A DNA stretch of 54,447 nt, counting the filler, from Thelocarpon superellum (Eukaryota), in assembly GCA_026025795.1 (NCBI GenBank). It is 2 parts of 2 records of this genome, joined end to end, with 100 filler letters (N's around TTAATTAATTAA, not from the genome) between each part and the next. Parts side by side here need not be neighbours in the genome. Positions count along the whole stretch, not along the records: positions 27,307 to 54,447 come from JAPEUG010000250.1; 1 more part is not named here. One strand, written 5' to 3'. The notes under the pieces are model-generated. The model had not been told where the DNA came from, did not search any database, and saw only the letters and a program-made list of their open reading frames with translations. The position numbers and the translations under genes were made by a program. Below, one piece after another: positions 6,784 to 51,200 of this stretch. Within the stretch, counting starts at the first letter, position 1, and each line of letters opens with the position of its first letter.

Positions 6784-7934
6784 GCTGGCGACGTCGAGCG
6801 CGTCGATGGGATCAGGAGGAAGGGGAGGACGGACGGTCGATCCAGGACGTGGACGAGGGGCCGATGAGCACCCAACCCTGCCTACTTGCGGACTCCGTGA
6901 TTTGGCCGATGGAAAGGTAGCGATCCAAGGAAATGGGATGTCGGCCGCTGAGTATTAGACCTGCACGAGTACCGGGACTACTAGTCGTAGCAGTTCCTGA
7001 CCAAAACCCGGAATCCCGACCATACGGCATCGAGCGAGGCAACGTACGACGGCCAGCTGCACTACTGACATGGGGGAAACATGGGGGTGCTGACGACGAT
7101 CGCCGGTCGGCGCTCGGGTAAGGGCGATTTAATTGGTGGCTGAACTGGTCCTCCGTGTGAGAGTCTTGGCAACTCTCGCCCTCGTACTGGTGCCCGGCTT
7201 CGCTACGACGAACCCGCCGTGCCAGACGCCATTCCATACAACCCGGGATATCGGTTTGGTGGTACGTGCACCAGCCGGAGGTCAACTCATGAACCAGCCA
7301 CTGGACATCGAGACGATTTCTTCGCAGATCCAACGGTAATCCAACCTGCCAGGGCTGTGAGATTTTTTAAAGTGCCTCTGCCAAGTTAGTCGTAACATGA
7401 ACGTCGCCGGGCTAGGGACTGCAGAGCTCTTGGAAAGGCGCTTCTTTCATGAAATCCACGACGTAGATTTCAACAGTCGCTCTTAAGTCCCCAGAGCGCC
7501 AGGAGCGCCCGTTGCTTGGACGGGTGTCAGTGGATCCACTCACTCTACGCCGTCCAGCTAGTCTCATGGCGTGTCCCAGAAACAGCAAAAACAAAACATA
7601 CAACAGCGGGGATTCGCTGGTCGTCACCGACCCAACTACTAGTCCGCCGATCTGTGGCTTATGTATGGCAGAGCGGACGGGATGCCCAGTTCTCCACAGT
7701 CTATGGTCGTATGTATGGGCTGACGATGATAAATTTAATATAATCTACCTTCCGTCTTCAAACCCCAAGCTAGAGACTTCCAAAGGGCGAGACTAACCTT
7801 TGGCGAGAAATGGCCCAGGTGTTGGATATATCTTCATCGCTTCTAATGTATGCTCGTACTGGTATCATAGAAACAGAAACGCTTCATATTGGACGCTACC
7901 ATCCCGAACCCCAGCGCCACTTTCCGAGCCTTGC

Positions 7935-27206: not shown

Positions 27207-27306
27207 NNNNNNNNNNNNNNNNNNNNNNNNNNNNNNNNNNNNNNNNNNNNTTAATTAATTAANNNNNNNNNNNNNNNNNNNNNNNNNNNNNNNNNNNNNN
27301 NNNNNN
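27207..27306. other. Artificial scaffold spacer N44-TTAATTAATTAA-N44
   Basis: Exactly 100 nt, symmetric, centred on a palindromic six-frame-stop linker. Confidence 0.97.
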
Positions 27307-31011: not shown

Positions 31012-32182
31012 ATGAAGCCACGATTCTTTTCCACCTTGCGCTCTCTTCGTCATGAAAACCCATTGGTAAGGCCCATCAGTTGCATTTTGCATTTCTTACC
31101 AAACACCTAAATCCATCTAGGGATTACCGCGGTCTGGCGCGCCACCGCAGCTACCGCGTATGCAACGCGGCCTGCCCCAGAGACGACATATCCCCAATGT
31201 ACGAAAGATCATAGCCGTGTCGTCAGCCAAGGGAGGGGTGGGGAAATCAACCATCGCAGGTGTCTTCTTCACCGCACACTCGTCTTTCGTCCATACAACG
31301 ATTGACGACCCATAGTCAATCTAGCGCTCGCGTTTGCGCGTCAAGGTCATCGAAGCGGCATTCTGGACACGGATATCTTTGGGCCGTCTATTCCGACCTT
31401 GCTAAACTTATCCAGCGAACCAAGGCTCTCGTCGAGTATGCCGCACCTGTTTCCTGGTGGGAAGTGACCCAAACCTAACGCTGCCCTAGACAATCAGCTC
31501 CTACCCCTGTCCAATTATGGCATCCAGTCCATGTCCATGGGATACTTGGTGGATGAACGGGCCCCGGTAGTCTGGCGGGGCTTGATGGTGATGAAGGCCT
31601 TACAACAGCTCTTACATGAAGTCGACTGGGCCGCTTTGGACGTGCTGGTCTTGGATCTACCGCCTGGCACGGGCGATACCCAGTTGACCATCACGCAACA
31701 GATCAAGCTTGACGGTACGTCTAGACCTTGTCGACCAGTTACAACCTCCGTACACCGCTGACTGATCGCCAAGGCGCCGTGATTGTCTCCACTCCCCAAG
31801 ACATCGCGCTTCGAGATGCGGTCAAGGGGATTGTCATGTTCCAAAAGACCGAAGTGCCGGTAAGATCTACAAGTAGCATCATGAACATTCCGACTCACGC
31901 TGCTGACAGATCCTGGGCATGGTTCAAAACATGTCCATCTTTACCTGTCCGCATTGCTCTCAAAGTACTCATATCTTTGGCGCTGAAGGCGTGGCGCGTG
32001 AATGCCTCAGCCATGGCGTGGACTTCCTTGGTGACATCCCATTACATGCAAGCATCTGCAGCGATGCGGACCGCGGTGTGCCTACCGTGGTCTCAGAGCC
32101 AGGTAGTGTGAGGGCCAAGGCGTTCATGGACATAGCGGAGACGCTGAGTCACAAAATTGGGCTGGGCGGAGGCGGAGAGTAG
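31012..32182 (+). CDS. IND1: Mitochondrial Mrp/NBP35-family Fe-S assembly ATPase (Ind1/NUBPL); five introns
   Basis: [74 protein letters not shown]. Confidence 0.93.
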
Positions 32183-42817: not shown

Positions 42818-45231
42818 ATGTCGGACCTCAACTCCTGGGAAGATGATCCGGCGGCGCAAGACGAGAGCCTCTCGCGCCAAGCCCAGCAGAACTTGAGCCT
42901 CAACCAGGGTCCGCAAAACATGCCCAATGGCTTCCGGCCCAACGTCACCTCCTTCCAGCCCGGCGCCCAGTCGTTTCAGCCCAACCCGCAGTACCAGCAG
43001 TATGGTGCCTACGACCAGTCACCGGCACAGCCACAAGCACAGTCGCAGTACGGCGCCTACTACAACCAGCAAGCCGGCTTCGGCGGGGCAGGCTACCCGC
43101 AATATGGTCAATACAATCAAGCATACTCGGGCCCCTATGGCCCGGGTGCACAGGCCGGCGCCTACGGTCAATCACAGTACCCAGCATACCACCAAGGGCA
43201 GCAGGCCGCCCCCGCTCCCGGCTCGGTCCCGGCACCACAGCAACCCTTCCAACCCCGTCAGGCACCAAGCCTCGTCAATCGACCATCCGCTGGCGCCGCG
43301 GGATCGGGTGCGTCGGCGACGGCGGCGGCCACAGGAAATAGCACCACGGCCTCATCGTCCAAGCCGTCGGTGAAGAATGAGGGTGGCGCGAAGGTGTGGA
43401 GCATCGGTGGTGACGCCGCTCCGCCCAAAGCCAAGGTTCTGTCCATCGGCACGACCACGCCCGCGAAGCCGGCCGCGACGGAGGAGAGCAAAGAGATGAC
43501 GGTGCCGGGAGGGGGCGCCAAAGCTGCGGCGGCCAAGGCGATTGAGAAGACGGAGAAGCCGACGGACAAGACGGCGGGTGCGAGCGGGGGCAACAAGACC
43601 ACGGCCTCCTCGGGCACGTCAAGCCCGTCGCAAGCCGAGGCCAAGGCCGCGGTGCGCCAGGCCGACGCCGTGGCCAAGGAGCAGGCGGCCGACGTGGACA
43701 TGGAGACGCTGGAGGAGGTGTATGGCAAAGAGCACGTCAATCTGATCTTCATCGGCCATGTCGACGCGGGCAAATCCACCTTGGGCGGCAGCATCCTGTA
43801 CGCCACGGGCATGGTGGACGAGCGAACGATGGACAAGTACAAGAAGGAGGCCAAGGAGGCCGGGCGTGAGACGTGGTATCTGTCCTGGGCCCTGGATCTG
43901 ACCAAAGAGGAGCGGGCCAAGGGCAAGACGGTCGAGGTGGGTCGCGGCTTCTTCGAGACGGAGAAGCGACGCTACACCATCCTCGACGCCCCGGGCCACA
44001 AGACCTTTGTGCCCAACATGATCGGTGGCGCGTCCCAGGCCGATGTCGGCATCTTGGTCATCAGCGCGCGGAAGGGCGAGTACGAGACGGGCTTCGAAAA
44101 GGGCGGGCAGACGCGCGAGCACGCCATGCTGGCCAAGACACAGGGCGTCAACAAACTGGTCGTCGTCGTCAACAAGATGGATGACCCCACGGTGGAGTGG
44201 AGCAAGGAGCGCTTCGACGAGTGCACGTCCAAGCTCAAGGTCTTTCTCAAGGGCACGGGATATGATCCCAAGACCGGTGAGGATCTTGAACTGACTCACC
44301 AAGTGACCTGGCAGCTCAGCTAATGTGCCCCTGGCTAGACTTGACATTCATGCCCATCTCGGCTCAGACGACGGTGGGAATCAAAGACCGGGTGCCCCAG
44401 CATCTGGCGCCATGGCATGACGGGCCATCACTGCTTGAATACCTCGACAACATGAAGACGTTGGAGCGGAAAGTCAACGCACCATTCATGATGCCCATCA
44501 ACGGCAAGTACCGAGTACGTCTCCCATCGTTCGCTCATCGCGCTCGTCTGACGTATGATGCAGGACATGGGCACGATGATCGAGGGCAAGATCGAGTCAG
44601 GCGTGATCAAGAAAGGGTCGTCGTACGTCATGATGCCCAATCGGGAAAAGGCGGACGTGGCGGCGCTGTACGGCGAGACGGAAGAGGAGATCCCGGCGGC
44701 GACGTGCGGCGACCAAGTCCGCATCCGGCTGCGCGGCGTGGAGGAAGAAGACATCATGCCTGGCTTTGTGCTGTGCTCGCCCAAACGGCCCGTCCACTGC
44801 GTATCGGCATTCGAGGCGCAGATCCGGATCCTGGAACTCAAGAGCATCCTCTCGGCCGGCTTCAACTGCGTGCTGCACGTGCACTCGGCGATTGAAGAGG
44901 TCACGTTCGCCGCGCTGCTGCATAAACTCGAGAAGAACACGGGCCGCAAGAGCAAGAAGCCGCCCCCCTACGCCGCCAAGGGCCAGAGCATCATCGCTCG
45001 TCTGGAGGTCATCGGTGGGGCGGGCGCGGTCTGCGTCGAGCGCTTCGAGGACTACGCCCAGCTGGGGCGCTTCACGCTGCGTGATCAGGTGAGTCGAGCT
45101 TCTGTTTCTGGCCTTGGGGACCGTCCCAGGGGAATAGACCGTCCCAGTTGCTGATGCCTGCGTACGCACGACAGGGCCAGACCATTGCCATTGGGAAGAT
45201 TACCAAGTTGATCATGGACGGCACGAATTAG
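42818..45231 (+). CDS. SUP35: Eukaryotic release factor 3 GTPase; introns 44277-44338, 44515-44562, 45089-45174
   Basis: Q/Y/G-rich N domain, KEHVNLIFIGHVDAGKSTLGG, DAPGH, NKMD, GRFTLRDQ|GQTIAIGKITKL. Confidence 0.97.
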
Positions 45232-45560
45232 GGGGCTGTAGTATCATCATCTGCATGGTATATCTGCCCTACCAGTGGCTCTTCTGATCATATTTCCGTC
45301 CTTCAAAGGGTTCAATGTCTTCCACGTCGATCCCCACCATGTGGCACCGGGGAGATACAAGACGAGATGGAATGGGAGCGAAACGGGACGAATGAGCGGG
45401 AGAGGGAATGACAACCAACGCCCCATATAGAAGCGAAGACGAAGATGATGTTATGAAGATGTGAAGAGACATGCCTGCTCCTTTCCTCGTTGACTCCCGC
45501 CTCCGGCCTCCTGATTCCTGGTTCCCGAAGCCCCAGCGCCCCTTCTCATGTCCAAAACAC

Positions 45561-47003
45561 TCAGTCAGAATCGTAATCTACCAGTCCTCGCCCAGGAGCC
45601 GTGGCCGTGGCCGTGGCCGTGGCCGTGGCTATCGTCGTAGTCGTTGTCGTCTTGGGGGATTGCACAACGCGCCCGTCTCCTCCTTGACGCAGCAAGGGCC
45701 CCTTTCCGGCCGCCGGCGCGCGTATCAGTTTCGGAACAGTACTTGATCGTGTCGACGAGGATGAGGGATCCCGCCATGACTTGAGACCGTCTGGCCCACC
45801 CTCGTCATTACCACCACCGCTGCCGCCGCCGCCGCCGCTGCCGCGGTTACTGGGGAAAGCCGGGAGCAGAAACGGATCGCGGACCGCGCGCGAATTCAGT
45901 CGGATTTCCTGCGCGAGCTTGCGTCGTGCCGTCTCTTGCTTTTTCGCCTCTTTTCCTTTCGACCGGGACTGTGGCTGGGACGGTGTCGTTGTGGCGGCCC
46001 GTTTCCGAGGACTGGCCTGCTCCTCCCGCCGGCCGGGCGGCTCTGCAAAGAGGGGTCTTGCTTTGGCTTGCGCGACCGCAGTGGTGGTGTGGATTTCGTC
46101 GTCGTCATCGTCCAAGGCATTGGCAGTCTCGCCAAACTCGACCAGGCTGGCACGCAGTCGATCGTCGTCGTTCTCGGCCAGGAGATCGATGCTTAGATTC
46201 ATCCTGTCGCGTAGGGCTTCCGTGGCCTTCTCCTCCTCGGCGCGCCGTTTGCGGCCCGCGCGGAACGTCTTCCGGAGGCGCTGGCTCTGCGCGTACGGAT
46301 CGGCCCAGTCCTGGTCGACTTTGCTCCGGAGCTCCTCGACCCGACTGTGCTCCGTCTGCGCGCGGCGCTTGTCTTCCACTTTTCCCTCGAGCGCGGCAAA
46401 GGCGTCGTTGCGCCGTCGTTCGCGCTCTTCTTCCGTCGTGATGTTGATCGTGCCCTCCACCTCCTTGTCCTCACCCGTGTCACGTTTCTTGCCCCCCTCC
46501 GTCACCACGTAGGCGGTGTTCTGCGGGTCCGTCCGGATCTCGATCGTGCCCCCGCAGACGGTATGTTTCATCCGGAAGGCGTAGATCGGCGTCGAATAGT
46601 AGTTTCCCACCTTCCTCTTCTCCGCATTGAACCGCACCCCCTGCCCGATGATCGTCTCCTTGGGACAAGTGCTGCACCATACAGCAAAGGGCATCTCGAA
46701 TCGCACCGTGAGGATCCCTTGCCCGGCTTTACGCCCCCGTGCCCCCAGTGGGTGTCTGCAGTGAGGCATCAGCGGCGACCGGGATGAGGTGGCGGCCTGT
46801 CACATACTTGCCTGCCAGCTTGTTGGCTAACACGGTGCCTTCATGTTCCGGCGGGACATAGCTATGAGGGAGTCAGTGCTGGCGCTTGGTCGAGGCATGC
46901 AGCGAGTATCTTGGTCTCGTACCGTCCCATATCTATGAGAACAGCGGTCAGCGTCCCGAGCTCCCACGAGATCGGCCGTATGACACTCACTAAAGCCTTG
47001 CAT
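45561..47003 (-). CDS. CWC16/Yju2-family splicing factor (CCDC130/Saf4-like); three 5' introns including a 10-nt microexon at 46923-46932
   Basis: Spliced N-terminus MQGFNMGRYVPPEHEG..NKLAGKHPLGAR, VRFEMPFAVWCSTC, IGQGVRFNAEKRKVGNYYSTPIY, EIRTDPQN; C-terminal GLVDYDSD. Confidence 0.9.
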
Positions 47004-47316
47004 CTTGACTGGGCGAGACGCAACTGCGTCGTGGATGGCCTTGAGAAAGGAGAGGCGGGCGAAGTCTCGATTGCCCGCCGTCACGTAGTCCAAATGAACC
47101 ACCCAGCCGGCCGTCGCTGACCTACTCAACCGTGGCGTACCATGGAGCCTGTTTGCCATTCGCTACAGATCCTTGACATTTGCGGTCAAAATGGTAGGAG
47201 TGGGACCATGACTACCTGAGGTTCTCGCCCTGCAAGGATCCTCCCTGATGTCGATTGTGATTGATAATCATCGGCTTGGTACTGAGAGGTGATTATTTGT
47301 GAGGTTTCAGTATTTT

Positions 47317-47337
47317 ATTAACGAAAGTTTCGTTAAT
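47317..47337. repeat. Perfect inverted repeat ATTAACGAAA-G-TTTCGTTAAT abutting the tRNA 5' end
   Basis: The 10-nt arms are exact reverse complements; preceded by an AT-rich TATTTTATTA tract. Confidence 0.85.
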
Positions 47338-47475
47338 GGCTGGGTAGTTCAGCGGCAGAATTCTTGCTTTGGGCGATTCAAAGTCTGAAATGTAAGAGGT
47401 CCTGGGTTCAGTAAGTCTCCTATCCACCGCACTCCAAGAGCAGGTCTAATATGTTGAAGATCCCCAGCTCAGCCC
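47338..47475 (+). tRNA. tRNA-Pro(UGG) split by two introns (47374-47390 canonical; 47411-47459 spliceosomal-type)
   Basis: Acceptor GGCTGGG/CTCAGCC plus discriminator C; D stem GTTC/GAAT; anticodon stem CTTGC/GTAAG with loop TT-TGG-G^T; variable loop AGGTC; T stem CTGGG/CCCAG with loop TTCA^ATC. Joined exons 36+20+16 = 72 nt. Confidence 0.92.
47411..47459 (+). other. 49-nt U2-type spliceosomal intron within the tRNA T-loop
   Basis: GTAAGT donor, CTAAT branch (47446-47450), AAG acceptor; exact removal restores GGTTCAATCCC. Confidence 0.85.
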
Positions 47476-47480
47476 TCTGC

Positions 47481-47495
47481 TTTTTGCCTTTTTTT
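47481..47495 (+). terminator. RNA polymerase III oligo-dT terminator
   Basis: T5 and T7 runs beginning 6 nt after the tRNA 3' end. Confidence 0.8.
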
Positions 47496-48213
47496 ACATC
47501 AAAGGCGGGCTCTTGATGGTATCTCACAGCTTGCGACACATACTAGGTGTTCGTAGTTGATTTGCTTTGACACTGGTGGGAGCGTCAGAAGTCCCGGTCT
47601 GTACGTGGTCCCAGGAGACCTTTAGTCGGCGTTCGTCTACGGTCGAGGGTGCAGAGGTACCCCACTTGCTCGGCTACTTTTGGCGTACCCAAATGCGTGA
47701 GAAGCGTCTCATGTTCAATTCCTTCATGAGGTTCATTTTTGCCACTCAAAAATAGGGTCACTGGATATAAGTCGGATACGAAAGAGCTTGAAGATGCCGA
47801 TGTTGAAGTACACACGGCCACTTCTACCTTGTTTTTGTGGCATGTCGCGGCTGGGTCTCGTGCTGAGTGAGGAGTGGGTCTCCTACGACTCCTCCGACTC
47901 AAGAAATGTTGTCTCGACGGGAATCACTGCTCTTGCGGACCAGGTCTACTGAAGAACTATCACGATGTCTTTCAACGGGGCACCCTCGGGCAACTGCGCT
48001 CGGAGAGTGACGCTGCTGACCGCCACACGGAACCCGGGATTCATGGTTTCTGCTGAGATTGAATCCATTTTGAGTCTAGTAGAGGCTACGTGCAGTCATG
48101 CAAATCCCCATTCCAGCACCCAGGTCCAGCGCGAGATGGAGAGATGGAGAGCTTGAATGCGCCTCTGCCCAGCCTCCATGCCCGCCAGATTACTCCATGA
48201 CGGATTCACGGAT

Positions 48214-51200
48214 TCACGGATTTACAGTGGCCACGAGATCGGCCATGTAGCCGGCCAGAGGCCGATTGTGCGCAAAGACATACCACAGCTGTGGCAGGAC
48301 GGGAGCGAAGAGATCGCGCATGGAGACGCACCCGGTGCCGGTGCCGGTGCCGCCTTCGCCCGGGGGCTCGCCGCGCTCCTTGGGCATGTTGCGCGCCAGG
48401 TTGCGCAGGACCAGCGCGGCCGTCAGCGGCAGCCCGGCGGCGTCGCCGCGCTCGTCCACGGCGGTGTTGTAGTGCACCTGCGTCTGGTACTCGGCCTCCT
48501 GCGCCGCGTTGGGACCCTTGACCGGGCGGTCGCCCGGCTTCCGCTTCGGATCGGGCAGGTGCATCTTGATGTGCATGGCCACGGACATGGCCTTGGTCGT
48601 GCCCTCGCGCGCATAGGCGTGGCAGCTGCCCCACCGACACAGATACCGTCGATCCGGCTGCTCCGTGCTGTCGTAGCGTCCGTCGGGGTGCTTGGGCACG
48701 TGCAGATGGTCGTCGAGGATATGCCGCCACATGCCCTCGGCGGTCAGGGCAAATGCGCCACAGGCCGTCTTCTCGGCCACGCGCCAGGTGCAGCGCTCGT
48801 ACACCTGGCCGTCGGGGCTCATGGGCAGGTGGCGCGGGCGGATGCCCTTGATGATGAATTTGGTGAGGGGTCCTTGCAGCACTTGCGCGCTGGCGTTCGC
48901 AAAGGTCGCGCTGATGTGCTTGATGAACTCGGCCGCCGGGAGGATGGCGTGGCCGGGGGTCTGGTGCTCGAGGAAGCGCGACTGGTAGGCCTGCCAGAGC
49001 GCGATCTGCGTGATGTCGGAATCCGCGTCTTCCTCGAAGCACGCACGGAGCCTGTCCCACCATCCGATTGTCAGCCAGGCGGCACTCGCGCGGAGATGCG
49101 AAGAGAGGGGGGGGGAGGCTCGACGCACCAATGCGAGCTACGTTCGGGCTCGGCGTAGGTCAAGAGCTTGGCCAGGAGATCCGGCGGCAGCATCGGCAAC
49201 TCCGTCGCCGGCTTCTCCTTCACGGGGGCTTTGATCATGCGCTTGGTCTCGACCTGGGTGGCGCCATGGAGCAGCAGACGCACGAGCTGATGGAGAAGAC
49301 CGCCGAGATTCATGTCGCGGGCCAGGGCCTCGACGTTGTCCGGCACGGCCGTGTACTGGTAGAGAAAGTCCAAGCACGCGTGCACCAGCTCCTCGTCGTC
49401 AATCATGGTCCAGTCGGACACGCGCTCCACGAGGGGGAGAGGGATGCCGTCCAGCCGGTTGTGCTCGTCGAGGTTCATGGAGATGCGGCTCAGGGCGCGC
49501 AAGGCGGTCAGGATGGCGCCGCGGTCCGAGTCGTCGAGCTGGGCGAGGAGCGAGCGGTACAGCGGGTCGTCGGGGCCGAGGGCGTAGTACTTGGTCAGCT
49601 GCTCGGCCATGTCGAGGGCGTAGTGCTGCATCTCCACCACGGCCGGGCGGGCGGGCAGGTTCAGGGCGACGGTGATCAGGTCGCGAATGGGCGCCTGCCG
49701 GGCGAGGTATTGCGCATTCTCCTCCAGCATGGTCATGTTGCGGAGGACCAGGGCGGCTTCGTTGATCCGGACCATCTTCTGCGCAAAGTCCTCCGTCTCC
49801 AGCGAATCGGAGGGGTAGCGCTCCAACGACTGGATGCGCTGCAGGAGGTCGGCCGTGCTGTTGATCCCGTCCAAGGCGTCGACGGGCGGCGCCTCGGGCT
49901 CGTCGTAGACGATGCGCCAGGCGACGTCGTAGAAGAGGGCGCCCACCTCGAGCGCTTTCTCGATCAGGCCCTCGGCCAGGCCCGGGAAGGCGTCGAAGCG
50001 AAACTTATCGCCGCGCTCGTGCGAGATCTTGACGAGATGGTGCAGGGCGTAGTCTTCCTCGGCGGGTATGCCGGATCGCAGCGCGAGCAGCGTGCGGACG
50101 TAGACGTTGGGACCTTCAAATCCGGTGCCGGGGAGCATCATGCCCTTGTACACGGCAGCCTTCTTGCCATCCTTGTCGGCCTTGGTGTCCTGCGCGTCCT
50201 TCAGGGCACGCTGTCGCTCTTTGAACAGCGTCGGGTTGTTGCCCGGCGTCACGACGGGGCGCAGGGTGAGCGGCATCTGCGGCCGCGGGTCGTAGCTGCC
50301 CACGGTGAAGGACATGCTCTGGGGATTGGACGAGTTGTAGAGGCTGGCCGGCGCCGGCGGTCCACTCGGCTGCGGGGACTGCGTGTTGGAGGCGTGCTGC
50401 CGCGGTTGGCGCGACGACGACAGATCGGGCTGGAAGAGGACGCGTTGCGGCGGCGCCTGACGGAGACCTAGCACCAGTCGCATGTCAGAAAGCGACGGGC
50501 GGACGACGGAGAAAGAGACGGCCAGCGACTGACCTCGGGTGACTCTACCCCCACTACCGGGATCGTCGCTCTGACCGCGCTCCTGGTCCGGCGTCGTCAC
50601 GCGCTCCTCGTCGCCGAGGCCGTCAGACTCTTCGCCGTTCGTCGGACGGGTACTCTCGCGACCGACGGCATGTGGTTTGTAGTTCTCCACCGTGCGATTC
50701 AGGATGTCGCCGCCTCGAGCACTAATGTCTTCGAGGATCTCTTTGGGAGGTGGCTCTCGGCCGTGAACCGTCGAGATCTCGTAGGCCCTAACAGTGAACG
50801 GCAGTCAGCCGATGTGCGCGCGCGCAGTCAGTGCAGTCAAGATCAGTCGGGAGCGGAGCACATACGCCAGGTTTCGATAGTAGACCGTCTTCATGGAGAA
50901 GGCCAGCGCGGGCAGATTGGTGGCGCCCAGGGCGTATTCTTGCCCGAGCTTTCTCCAGGCGAGCTTCTCGGAGCTGACGGAGTCGTAGCCTCCCTTGCTC
51001 ACCACAGCTTTGAAGAGCCGGAGCAGGTCGATGTGGCGTGTGCCCACGCGCGGACGCGGGTCGAAGTTGGTCCTGTCACGCTGAGCTAGGACTCCAGATC
51101 GGCCTGACGATGACGATGACCAATGGTCCGTGGTCAAAAGCCACCGACGGCAGGAACGGCCAACTCACCCTCGCTGTTCATGATAGGCAGTCAGCTTGGC

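Follow-up and report, generated by a model that had tools for sequence, protein, structure and literature searches.

The window, by which we mean the whole stretch of DNA analysed (54,447 nt), carries at 47338-47475 on the plus strand a sequence that reads as a tRNA-Pro(UGG) gene in three exons, starting at 47338 (Table 1). When both inserts between the exons are taken out, the remaining sequence gives a 72-nt cloverleaf. A script found 21/21 of its stem pairs to be standard (3 G.U), and its T-loop is the 7-nt TTCAATC. The same 72-nt product has a G1-C72 pair and the discriminator C73. Our reading of the sequence found U8, A14, G18, G19, U33, G37, G53, T54, T55, C56, A58 and C61, with none missing, and the D arm of exon 1 contains A14, G18, G19 and A21. 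G37, G1-C72 and C73 agree with the identity rules of eukaryotic tRNA-Pro. The preliminary description of this DNA had proposed a cloverleaf that is whole except for 49 nt at T-loop position 57/58, and had stated that excision of these at GT/AG leaves a 7-nt T-loop and a 72-nt tRNA with G1-C72 and C73; all of these elements were found.

The shorter of the two inserts had been described as a separate 17-nt intron at 37/38 whose TCAAAG is able to pair with the anticodon loop. This also holds, as TCAAAG can pair with C31-G36 (with one G.U). If position 37/38 together with intron-anticodon pairing is taken as the criterion, the 17-nt intron falls within it and the 49-nt insert, at 57/58, falls outside. 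If the T-loop insert alone is taken out, so that the 17-nt intron stays, the lowest-energy fold contains the acceptor stem, the T arm and an extended anticodon-intron helix. In the lowest-energy fold of the intact 138 nt the acceptor stem alone survives, and this fold is uninformative. The mature tRNA-Pro sequence has a lowest-energy fold that differs from the cloverleaf (z = -0.9). Because the minimum-energy fold of an unmodified tRNA is often not the cloverleaf, we left this value out of the evidence.

As for the surroundings, the tRNA lies 454 nt from the start codon of a CWC16/Yju2-like gene, the two being divergent (head to head). The best NCBI match to the product of the CWC16-like gene, with 100% identity, bears the labels MAG and Thelocarpon superellum, and the next-best match, with 61% identity, is labelled T. 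impressellum. An ARID-like gene on the minus strand, convergent with the tRNA, ends about 730 nt from it. There is no ORF of at least 60 aa on either strand over 47163-47560. This, and the fact that both neighbours are on the minus strand, indicates that the intron is not part of a protein gene. Just ahead of the tRNA, at 47318-47336, there is a perfect 19-nt palindrome, TTAACGAAA-G-TTTCGTTAA, with 9-nt arms and a 1-nt centre, whose last base is one short of the tRNA start. It explains weak minus-strand matches to Rfam miRNA/sRNA families, and it might bind a protein or fold into a hairpin. Elsewhere in the window, two runs of 44 N (27207-27250 and 27263-27306) stand 12 bases apart and represent gaps or masked stretches in the record.

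Table 1. Features of the tRNA-Pro(UGG) locus and of other parts of the window that are used in the comparison.
Feature	Position	Strand	Length	Remarks
TATA-like AT-rich element, TATTTTATTAA	47311-47321	+		-27 to -17 of the tRNA start
Exon 1	47338-47373	+		Standard positions 1-37, position 17 absent; acceptor 5' strand, D arm (A box TAGTTCAGCGG), anticodon stem 5' strand, U33; anticodon TGG, 47370-47372; G37, 47373
tRNA-endonuclease-type intron, position 37/38	47374-47390	+	17 nt	Same 17-nt intron as given by ARAGORN after deletion of the T-loop insert
Exon 2	47391-47410	+		Positions 38-57; position 38, anticodon stem 3' strand, 5-nt variable loop, T stem 5' strand; ends TTCA (T-loop 54-57)
Putative spliceosomal-type intron, T-loop 57/58	47411-47459	+	49 nt	47% GC; no T4 run
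Putative 5' splice site, GTAAGT	47411-47416	+		Exact start of the insert; agrees with GTRNGT
Putative branch, CTAAT	47446-47450	+		Ends 9 nt before the insert end; branch A, 47449
Putative 3' splice site, AAG	47457-47459	+		Sole AG downstream of the branch
Exon 3	47460-47475	+		T-loop 58-60 (ATC), T stem and acceptor 3' strands; last acceptor base, 47474; C73, 47475
Pol III terminator-like T runs	47481-47495	+		T5, 47481-47485; T7, 47489-47495
CWC16/Yju2-like gene (PF04502)	45564 to ~46884	-		Start codon near 46884
eRF3 gene intron	44515-44563		49 nt
SDR intron, AAG acceptor	32390-32333	-		Removal restores an SDR-type C-terminus (...VDG/GATVF, then stop)
IND1-like intron, AAG acceptor	31715-31773	+
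5S rRNA gene	7595-7714	-		Complete, solitary; Rfam 73.5 bits

Transcription signals and detection by tRNA finders

The GC content just upstream of the tRNA dips to 37-40%, compared with 60% for the window, and we infer that the TATA-like element TATTTTATTAA is a TFIIIB/TBP site. The A box is present, contiguous and intact in exon 1. In contrast, the B box is cut by the T-loop insert, so that the DNA retains contiguous GGTTCA alone, followed by intron bases. Scored against the consensus, the B box reaches 8/11 in the DNA (two N counted) and 11/11 after removal of the insert. Thus, the contiguous A and B boxes of a Pol III type 2 gene are not both present, the B box being the broken one, which makes the binding of TFIIIC doubtful and its loss possible. 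T5/T7 runs begin 6 nt after C73, and there are no T4 runs inside 47338-47475, both introns included; the oligo-T terminator is therefore present downstream and absent internally. The 5S rRNA gene of the window has a similar layout, with TATA-like ATTATATTAAATTTA upstream and T4/T5 runs downstream.

The best B-box-like match of the unspliced gene is GATTCAAAGTC at 47375-47385 in the anticodon intron, with 9/11 (two N counted). Its position brings to mind the intronic B box of fission-yeast U6. By our estimate a match of this quality is at chance level, and we did not use it as evidence.

On the intact sequence, ARAGORN detected no tRNA anywhere in the window, whether its intron option was on or off, and none at the locus. 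After deletion of 47411-47459 it reported a 72-nt tRNA with a 17-nt intron. It labelled this tRNA Leu(TAA) because it put the intron at 33/34; since nuclear tRNA introns of eukaryotes lie at 37/38 and the variable loop is only 5 nt long, the gene is correctly read as Pro(TGG). The preliminary description had expected ARAGORN to recognise a Pro-TGG tRNA when the insert is removed and not otherwise. The dependence on removal was observed, whereas the label given by the tool was Leu(TAA). With the intact DNA the Rfam tRNA model reached 16.2 bits, its cut-off being 29, and drew the T arm wrongly, and a search of the whole window with the curated Rfam thresholds reported the 5S rRNA gene and nothing else. 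The suspicion that standard tRNA finders may miss this gene was thus justified, as ARAGORN and the Rfam model both miss it.

We also removed GT..CTRAY..AG segments of 30-150 nt one at a time from both strands of the window and ran ARAGORN after each of the 3,548 deletions. A tRNA appeared solely without 47411-47459. This outcome (1 of 3,548) indicates that there is no other split tRNA in the window and that deleting and scanning in this way makes no accidental tRNAs. It had been suggested to look for further tRNAs split by GT..CTRAY..AG introns; none emerged from these deletions in the window.

The T-loop insert compared with mRNA introns

The insert was claimed to start with GTAAGT, to have CTAAT ending 9 nt before its end and to end with AAG, and we read all three at 47411-47459. 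The distance from the branch A to the terminal G is 10 nt. No flanking base is repeated across either junction, so the boundaries are unable to slide and the 49-nt insert is exactly GT...AG. There is no target-site duplication at the junctions. To define how common such signals are, we used a relaxed set (GTRNGT, CTRAY 6-30 nt from the end and a terminal AG) and a strict set (the same with GTAAGT). Among the 108,500 49-mers on both strands of the window, two carry the relaxed set, and one, the tRNA insert alone, carries the strict set. Among 200,000 random 49-mers of local composition the numbers were 2 for the relaxed set and 0 for the strict set.

We compared the insert with 16 likely mRNA introns of the window, 15 of which came from an ORF-joining scan and one of which, the SDR intron, was read from the sequence. 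Thirteen of the 15 have at least 100 open codons on both sides, and the eRF3 and IND1-like introns have shorter flanks. The scan used the regular expression GT[AG]NG[TCA] with CTRAY. Since the candidates were thus picked for their 5' site and branch, length, branch distance and acceptor are the sole independent comparisons. The 16 candidates are 49-110 nt long (median 58.5), a range that includes the 49 nt of the tRNA insert. In these candidates 7-19 nt separate the branch A from the intron end, with a mode of 10, which is the distance in the insert. Their acceptors are CAG in nine cases, TAG in four, AAG in two and GAG in one, and the insert has AAG. In GC content the insert (47%) lies below the candidates (52-70%). 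The likeness to neighbouring mRNA introns that had been asserted is therefore upheld for length, branch distance and acceptor, each within the range of the 16 candidates, and the two AAG acceptors cited in its favour, in IND1 (31773, plus strand) and in the SDR gene (32333, minus strand), both proved to be real and belong to two of these candidates.

An introner-like element or another transposon-derived intron would be expected to occur in several similar copies and to have a target-site duplication or terminal repeats. There is no other copy of the 49-nt insert in the 54-kb window, the best match being 12 nt long with E = 0.1. These 12 bases (GCAGGTCTAATA), which lie in a candidate 100-nt mRNA intron at 6948-7047 on the minus strand, are identical to the branch region of the insert, and the branch of that candidate is CTAAT, as in the insert.

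A self-splicing intron of group I or II was considered and rejected. No Rfam intron family was found at 47250-47560 with E values up to 10, and 49 nt is much too short for either group. The sequence features that could be examined here all agree with the claim that the insert is of the spliceosomal type, and on these features we regard it as very probably a spliceosomal-type intron.

Haplotypes, rival explanations and the preferred reading

Seven sequencing runs were listed as matching 43000-51000, none of them an RNA run, and the DNA run X1 is the best match. Contigs of X1 reproduce the sequence of the locus across both insert junctions, although this support for the assembly is not independent because X1 may be the source of the assembly. 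In X1 the locus contains a bubble at 47393-47525, whose arms have depths of 75 and 34.7, with flanking contigs at 105.8 and 106.3. The arm depths sum to the flank depth, which is most simply explained by two haplotypes at about 2:1, with paralogues as the alternative. The minor arm has eight differences, five in the insert, three in the 3' flank and none in exon 3. It keeps GTAAGT and AAG, and its branch is CTAAC in place of CTAAT. Because both haplotypes have the insert, it is not an assembly error, and the insertion is older than the split of the haplotypes. An assembly error revealed by reads had been named as something that would overturn the claim; what the reads give is X1 contigs crossing both junctions and a second haplotype that has the insert.

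The same comparison provides a test of selection on the exons, in which 0 of the 8 differences fall in the 16-nt exon 3, a result that is not significant on a strict count. More generous calculations gave P = 0.087 and P = 0.011, the second of which treats one contig as both haplotypes. The comparison is weak for exons, because the way in which a bubble is built forces its 30-nt anchors to agree and because single scattered variants may be lost in contigs. X1 has two patches with variants at a depth ratio of about 2:1, 47047-47158 (4 differences) and 47393-47525 (8 differences), and the sequence between them is identical as far as the contigs show. It seems that the sample holds two genotypes of the fungus. 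A G>C change at 47456 in the minor variant turns the intron end into GTTCAAG (47452-47459), an echo of the terminal GTTCA of exon 2. This echo could be a hint on the origin of the intron, or chance.

A further X1 contig matches the gene exactly from 47338 to about 47373-47375 and has a different, AT-rich 5' flank; its depth, estimated from depth bins, is about 35-37. It is another candidate 5' exon of the Pro-UGG type, followed by some other intron or by no intron, and it comes from the same genome or from another organism of the sample. Therefore, a redundant copy may exist, and selection on the split copy could be weak. A close relative is represented in the moss-metagenome runs X2 and X3 by contigs over 46900-47279 and 47661-47900 at a depth of 2-5, and these pieces have 0-15 other letters each, scattered. 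In JGI metagenome contigs we also looked for T arms of tRNA-Pro in which 37-67 extra nt follow position 57, whether or not these had GT/AG ends. None of the five matches was a real split tRNA-Pro. They yielded no tRNA before or after removal of the gap, none of them had both a GT start and an AG end, and they look like tRNA-derived repeats or chance.

The reading that we prefer, and to which we give about even confidence, is that in a Thelocarpon-like ascomycete this nuclear tRNA-Pro(UGG) gene acquired a genuine U2-type GT-AG intron and is transcribed and spliced to give a working tRNA-Pro. On this reading its precursor would need two splicing machineries. The model proposed here covers transcription, splicing, the order of the steps and an origin by reverse splicing. 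Transcription would most likely be by Pol III, with the undamaged A box and the TATA-like element before the gene as aids, and would stop at T5/T7; alternatively, the transcript could come from divergent Pol II transcription from the neighbouring promoter. The spliceosome would recognise TCA/GTAAGT, the CTAAT branch and the first downstream AG, and the 49 nt would leave as a lariat, which would rebuild the 7-nt T-loop. The T arm and the elbow would form solely after this removal. RNase P and RNase Z would then trim the ends and the tRNA endonuclease and ligase would remove the 17-nt intron at 37/38, all of them measuring from the mature domain. The intron itself may have entered the RNA by reverse splicing and then reached the gene through reverse transcription and recombination.

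Some explanations deny that the insert is a spliceosomal intron at all. The insert might be cut out by the tRNA splicing endonuclease or another nuclease, like the ectopic introns of archaea, Cyanidioschyzon merolae and nucleomorphs, and such introns do occur in nuclear tRNA genes, namely in C. merolae and the Guillardia nucleomorph, according to the part of PMC3978253 that deals with them. The endonuclease would be expected to use a bulge-helix-bulge, that is, two 3-nt bulges bearing the splice sites with a 4-bp helix between them. In the canonical register, the insert gives 0/4 central, 1/4 outer and 3/4 inner pairs and so does not form this motif, and the presence of all the spliceosomal signals would have to be put down to a coincidence of about 1 in 100,000. 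We consider removal by a nuclease very improbable. An assembly artefact, or a chance insert without relation to introns, is brought to mind by the label of the neighbouring protein, according to which the window comes from a metagenome-assembled genome. It is scarcely credible in view of the X1 contigs, which span both junctions without a difference at a depth of 75-106, of the second haplotype, which has its own substitutions and the insert too, and again of the chance of about 1 in 100,000 for the signal set.

Other explanations accept the intron and deny that a working tRNA is made. The main rival is that a spliceosomal intron, or its cDNA, entered one member of a tRNA-Pro(UGG) family and killed it, either because the split B box silences the gene or because a Pol III transcript never meets the spliceosome; the locus would then be a young pseudogene that has not decayed. 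The split B box and the other Pro-UGG-like 5' exon, which has a different flank in the same sample, make this rival a serious one. It also gains from the facts that the metagenome scan revealed no conservation outside one species and that the comparison of exons between haplotypes is not significant on a strict count. However, the 5 differences in 49 insert positions between the haplotypes mark the insertion as old, and yet in the window's copy the 21 pairs and the invariant positions are undamaged. The three splice signals are kept in both haplotypes, in one of which the branch is nearer to the consensus, and the terminator, the A box and the upstream AT-rich element are undamaged as well. 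We regard a killed copy as a possibility to be taken seriously, though a less probable one than the working gene. It is also conceivable that the locus specifies a Pol II non-coding RNA, for example one divergent from the promoter of the CWC16-like gene, from which the intron is spliced and no working tRNA is made, the tRNA-like part being a relic or a processing signal. The head-to-head arrangement with the CWC16-like gene (minus strand, start codon near 46884) and the perfect GTAAGT 5' splice site fit such a transcript, but T5/T7, the A box and the perfect cloverleaf favour a tRNA gene over a relic, and a Pol II origin of this kind appears improbable to us.

Known systems and the meaning of the locus

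Introns of the mRNA type are known in the fungal genes for U6 snRNA, a Pol III transcript, in those for U1, U2 and U5 snRNA and in ascomycete rRNA genes, as summarised in a passage of PMC5855946. The works cited in that passage are Tani and Ohshima (1989, 1991) for the U6 introns of Schizosaccharomyces pombe and others, Takahashi (1993, 1996) for the U1, U2 and U5 introns of Rhodotorula hasegawae, and Bhattacharya (2000) for the ascomycete rRNA introns. The determinants of spliceosomal intron insertion into snRNA and rRNA genes are called unclear there, and the passage does not mention tRNA (PMC5855946). For the U6 introns an origin by reverse splicing has been proposed, and in Schizosaccharomyces the intron interacts with the internal promoter in that it carries a B box, according to the title of a reference cited there (PMC5855946). 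The tRNA-Pro locus resembles fungal U6 in that a spliceosomal-type intron would interrupt a conserved region of a short, highly structured, Pol III-type RNA gene. It differs from U6 in that the insert splits the B box and does not supply one, in that the gene also bears an endonuclease-type intron, and in that splicing is merely predicted here from sequence. Furthermore, unlike U6, tRNA is to our knowledge not a component of the spliceosome and has no known contact with its catalytic centre.

The snRNA introns of R. hasegawae and the ascomycete rRNA introns are likewise GT-AG introns in stable fungal non-coding RNA genes, and the rRNA cases show that the hosts of spliceosomal introns include RNAs not made by Pol II. 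The tRNA-Pro gene differs from these cases in its host RNA and polymerase, and there is no tRNA among them. Spliceosomal introns in rRNA come mostly from lichen-forming fungi, and Thelocarpon is a lichen-related genus.

Nuclear tRNA genes of C. merolae whose A and B boxes are split by introns are thought to be expressed via an upstream TATA-like element, independently of TFIIIC, as stated in the portion of PMC3978253 on their expression. Both signals named for C. merolae, a TATA-like element before the gene and a T stretch after it, are present at the tRNA-Pro locus. Like genes of C. merolae, of cryptomonad nucleomorphs and of archaea that are described in PMC3978253, it is a two-intron tRNA gene with one intron outside the anticodon loop and a split internal promoter. 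The introns described there form a bulge-helix-bulge and are removed by the tRNA endonuclease, whereas the tRNA-Pro insert has 0/4 central pairs and spliceosomal signals. Textbooks and more recent accounts keep spliceosomal and tRNA introns apart as systems that act on different substrates; a 2025 paper (PMC12530127) names three types without relation to one another, namely those of the spliceosome, of tRNA and of XBP1.

A full-text literature search, which covered the subscription journals in part, brought up no paper that describes a tRNA gene with a spliceosomal intron. The statement in the preliminary description that no such case is known thus agrees with the search, and within the literature searched the tRNA-Pro locus would be the first spliceosomal-type intron in a tRNA. 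If it is spliced, this would be the first tRNA found to depend on the spliceosome. A tRNA with both machineries would link two systems, would mean that the spliceosome can act on a tRNA precursor made by Pol III, and would expose a blind spot of tRNA finders, both of ARAGORN and of the Rfam model. It is a bolder claim, and one that we think unlikely at present, that the spliceosome is obligatory for maturation of this tRNA-Pro and that tRNAs split by spliceosomal introns are a recurrent, overlooked class in Thelocarpon-like and lichen fungi. If this bolder claim is true, Pol III transcripts besides U6 would routinely enter the spliceosome, mRNA-splicing capacity could gate tRNA supply, and the tRNA gene sets of such genomes would be under-counted. 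The locus would then also document, cleanly and in nature, how reverse splicing into an abundant structured RNA leads to the gain of an intron.

The locus is unusual whether or not the gene works. A dead copy would still be a rare and precisely bounded landing of a spliceosomal intron in a gene that has no reading frame and whose RNA has no usual contact with the spliceosome. Such a landing bears directly on the origin of new introns.
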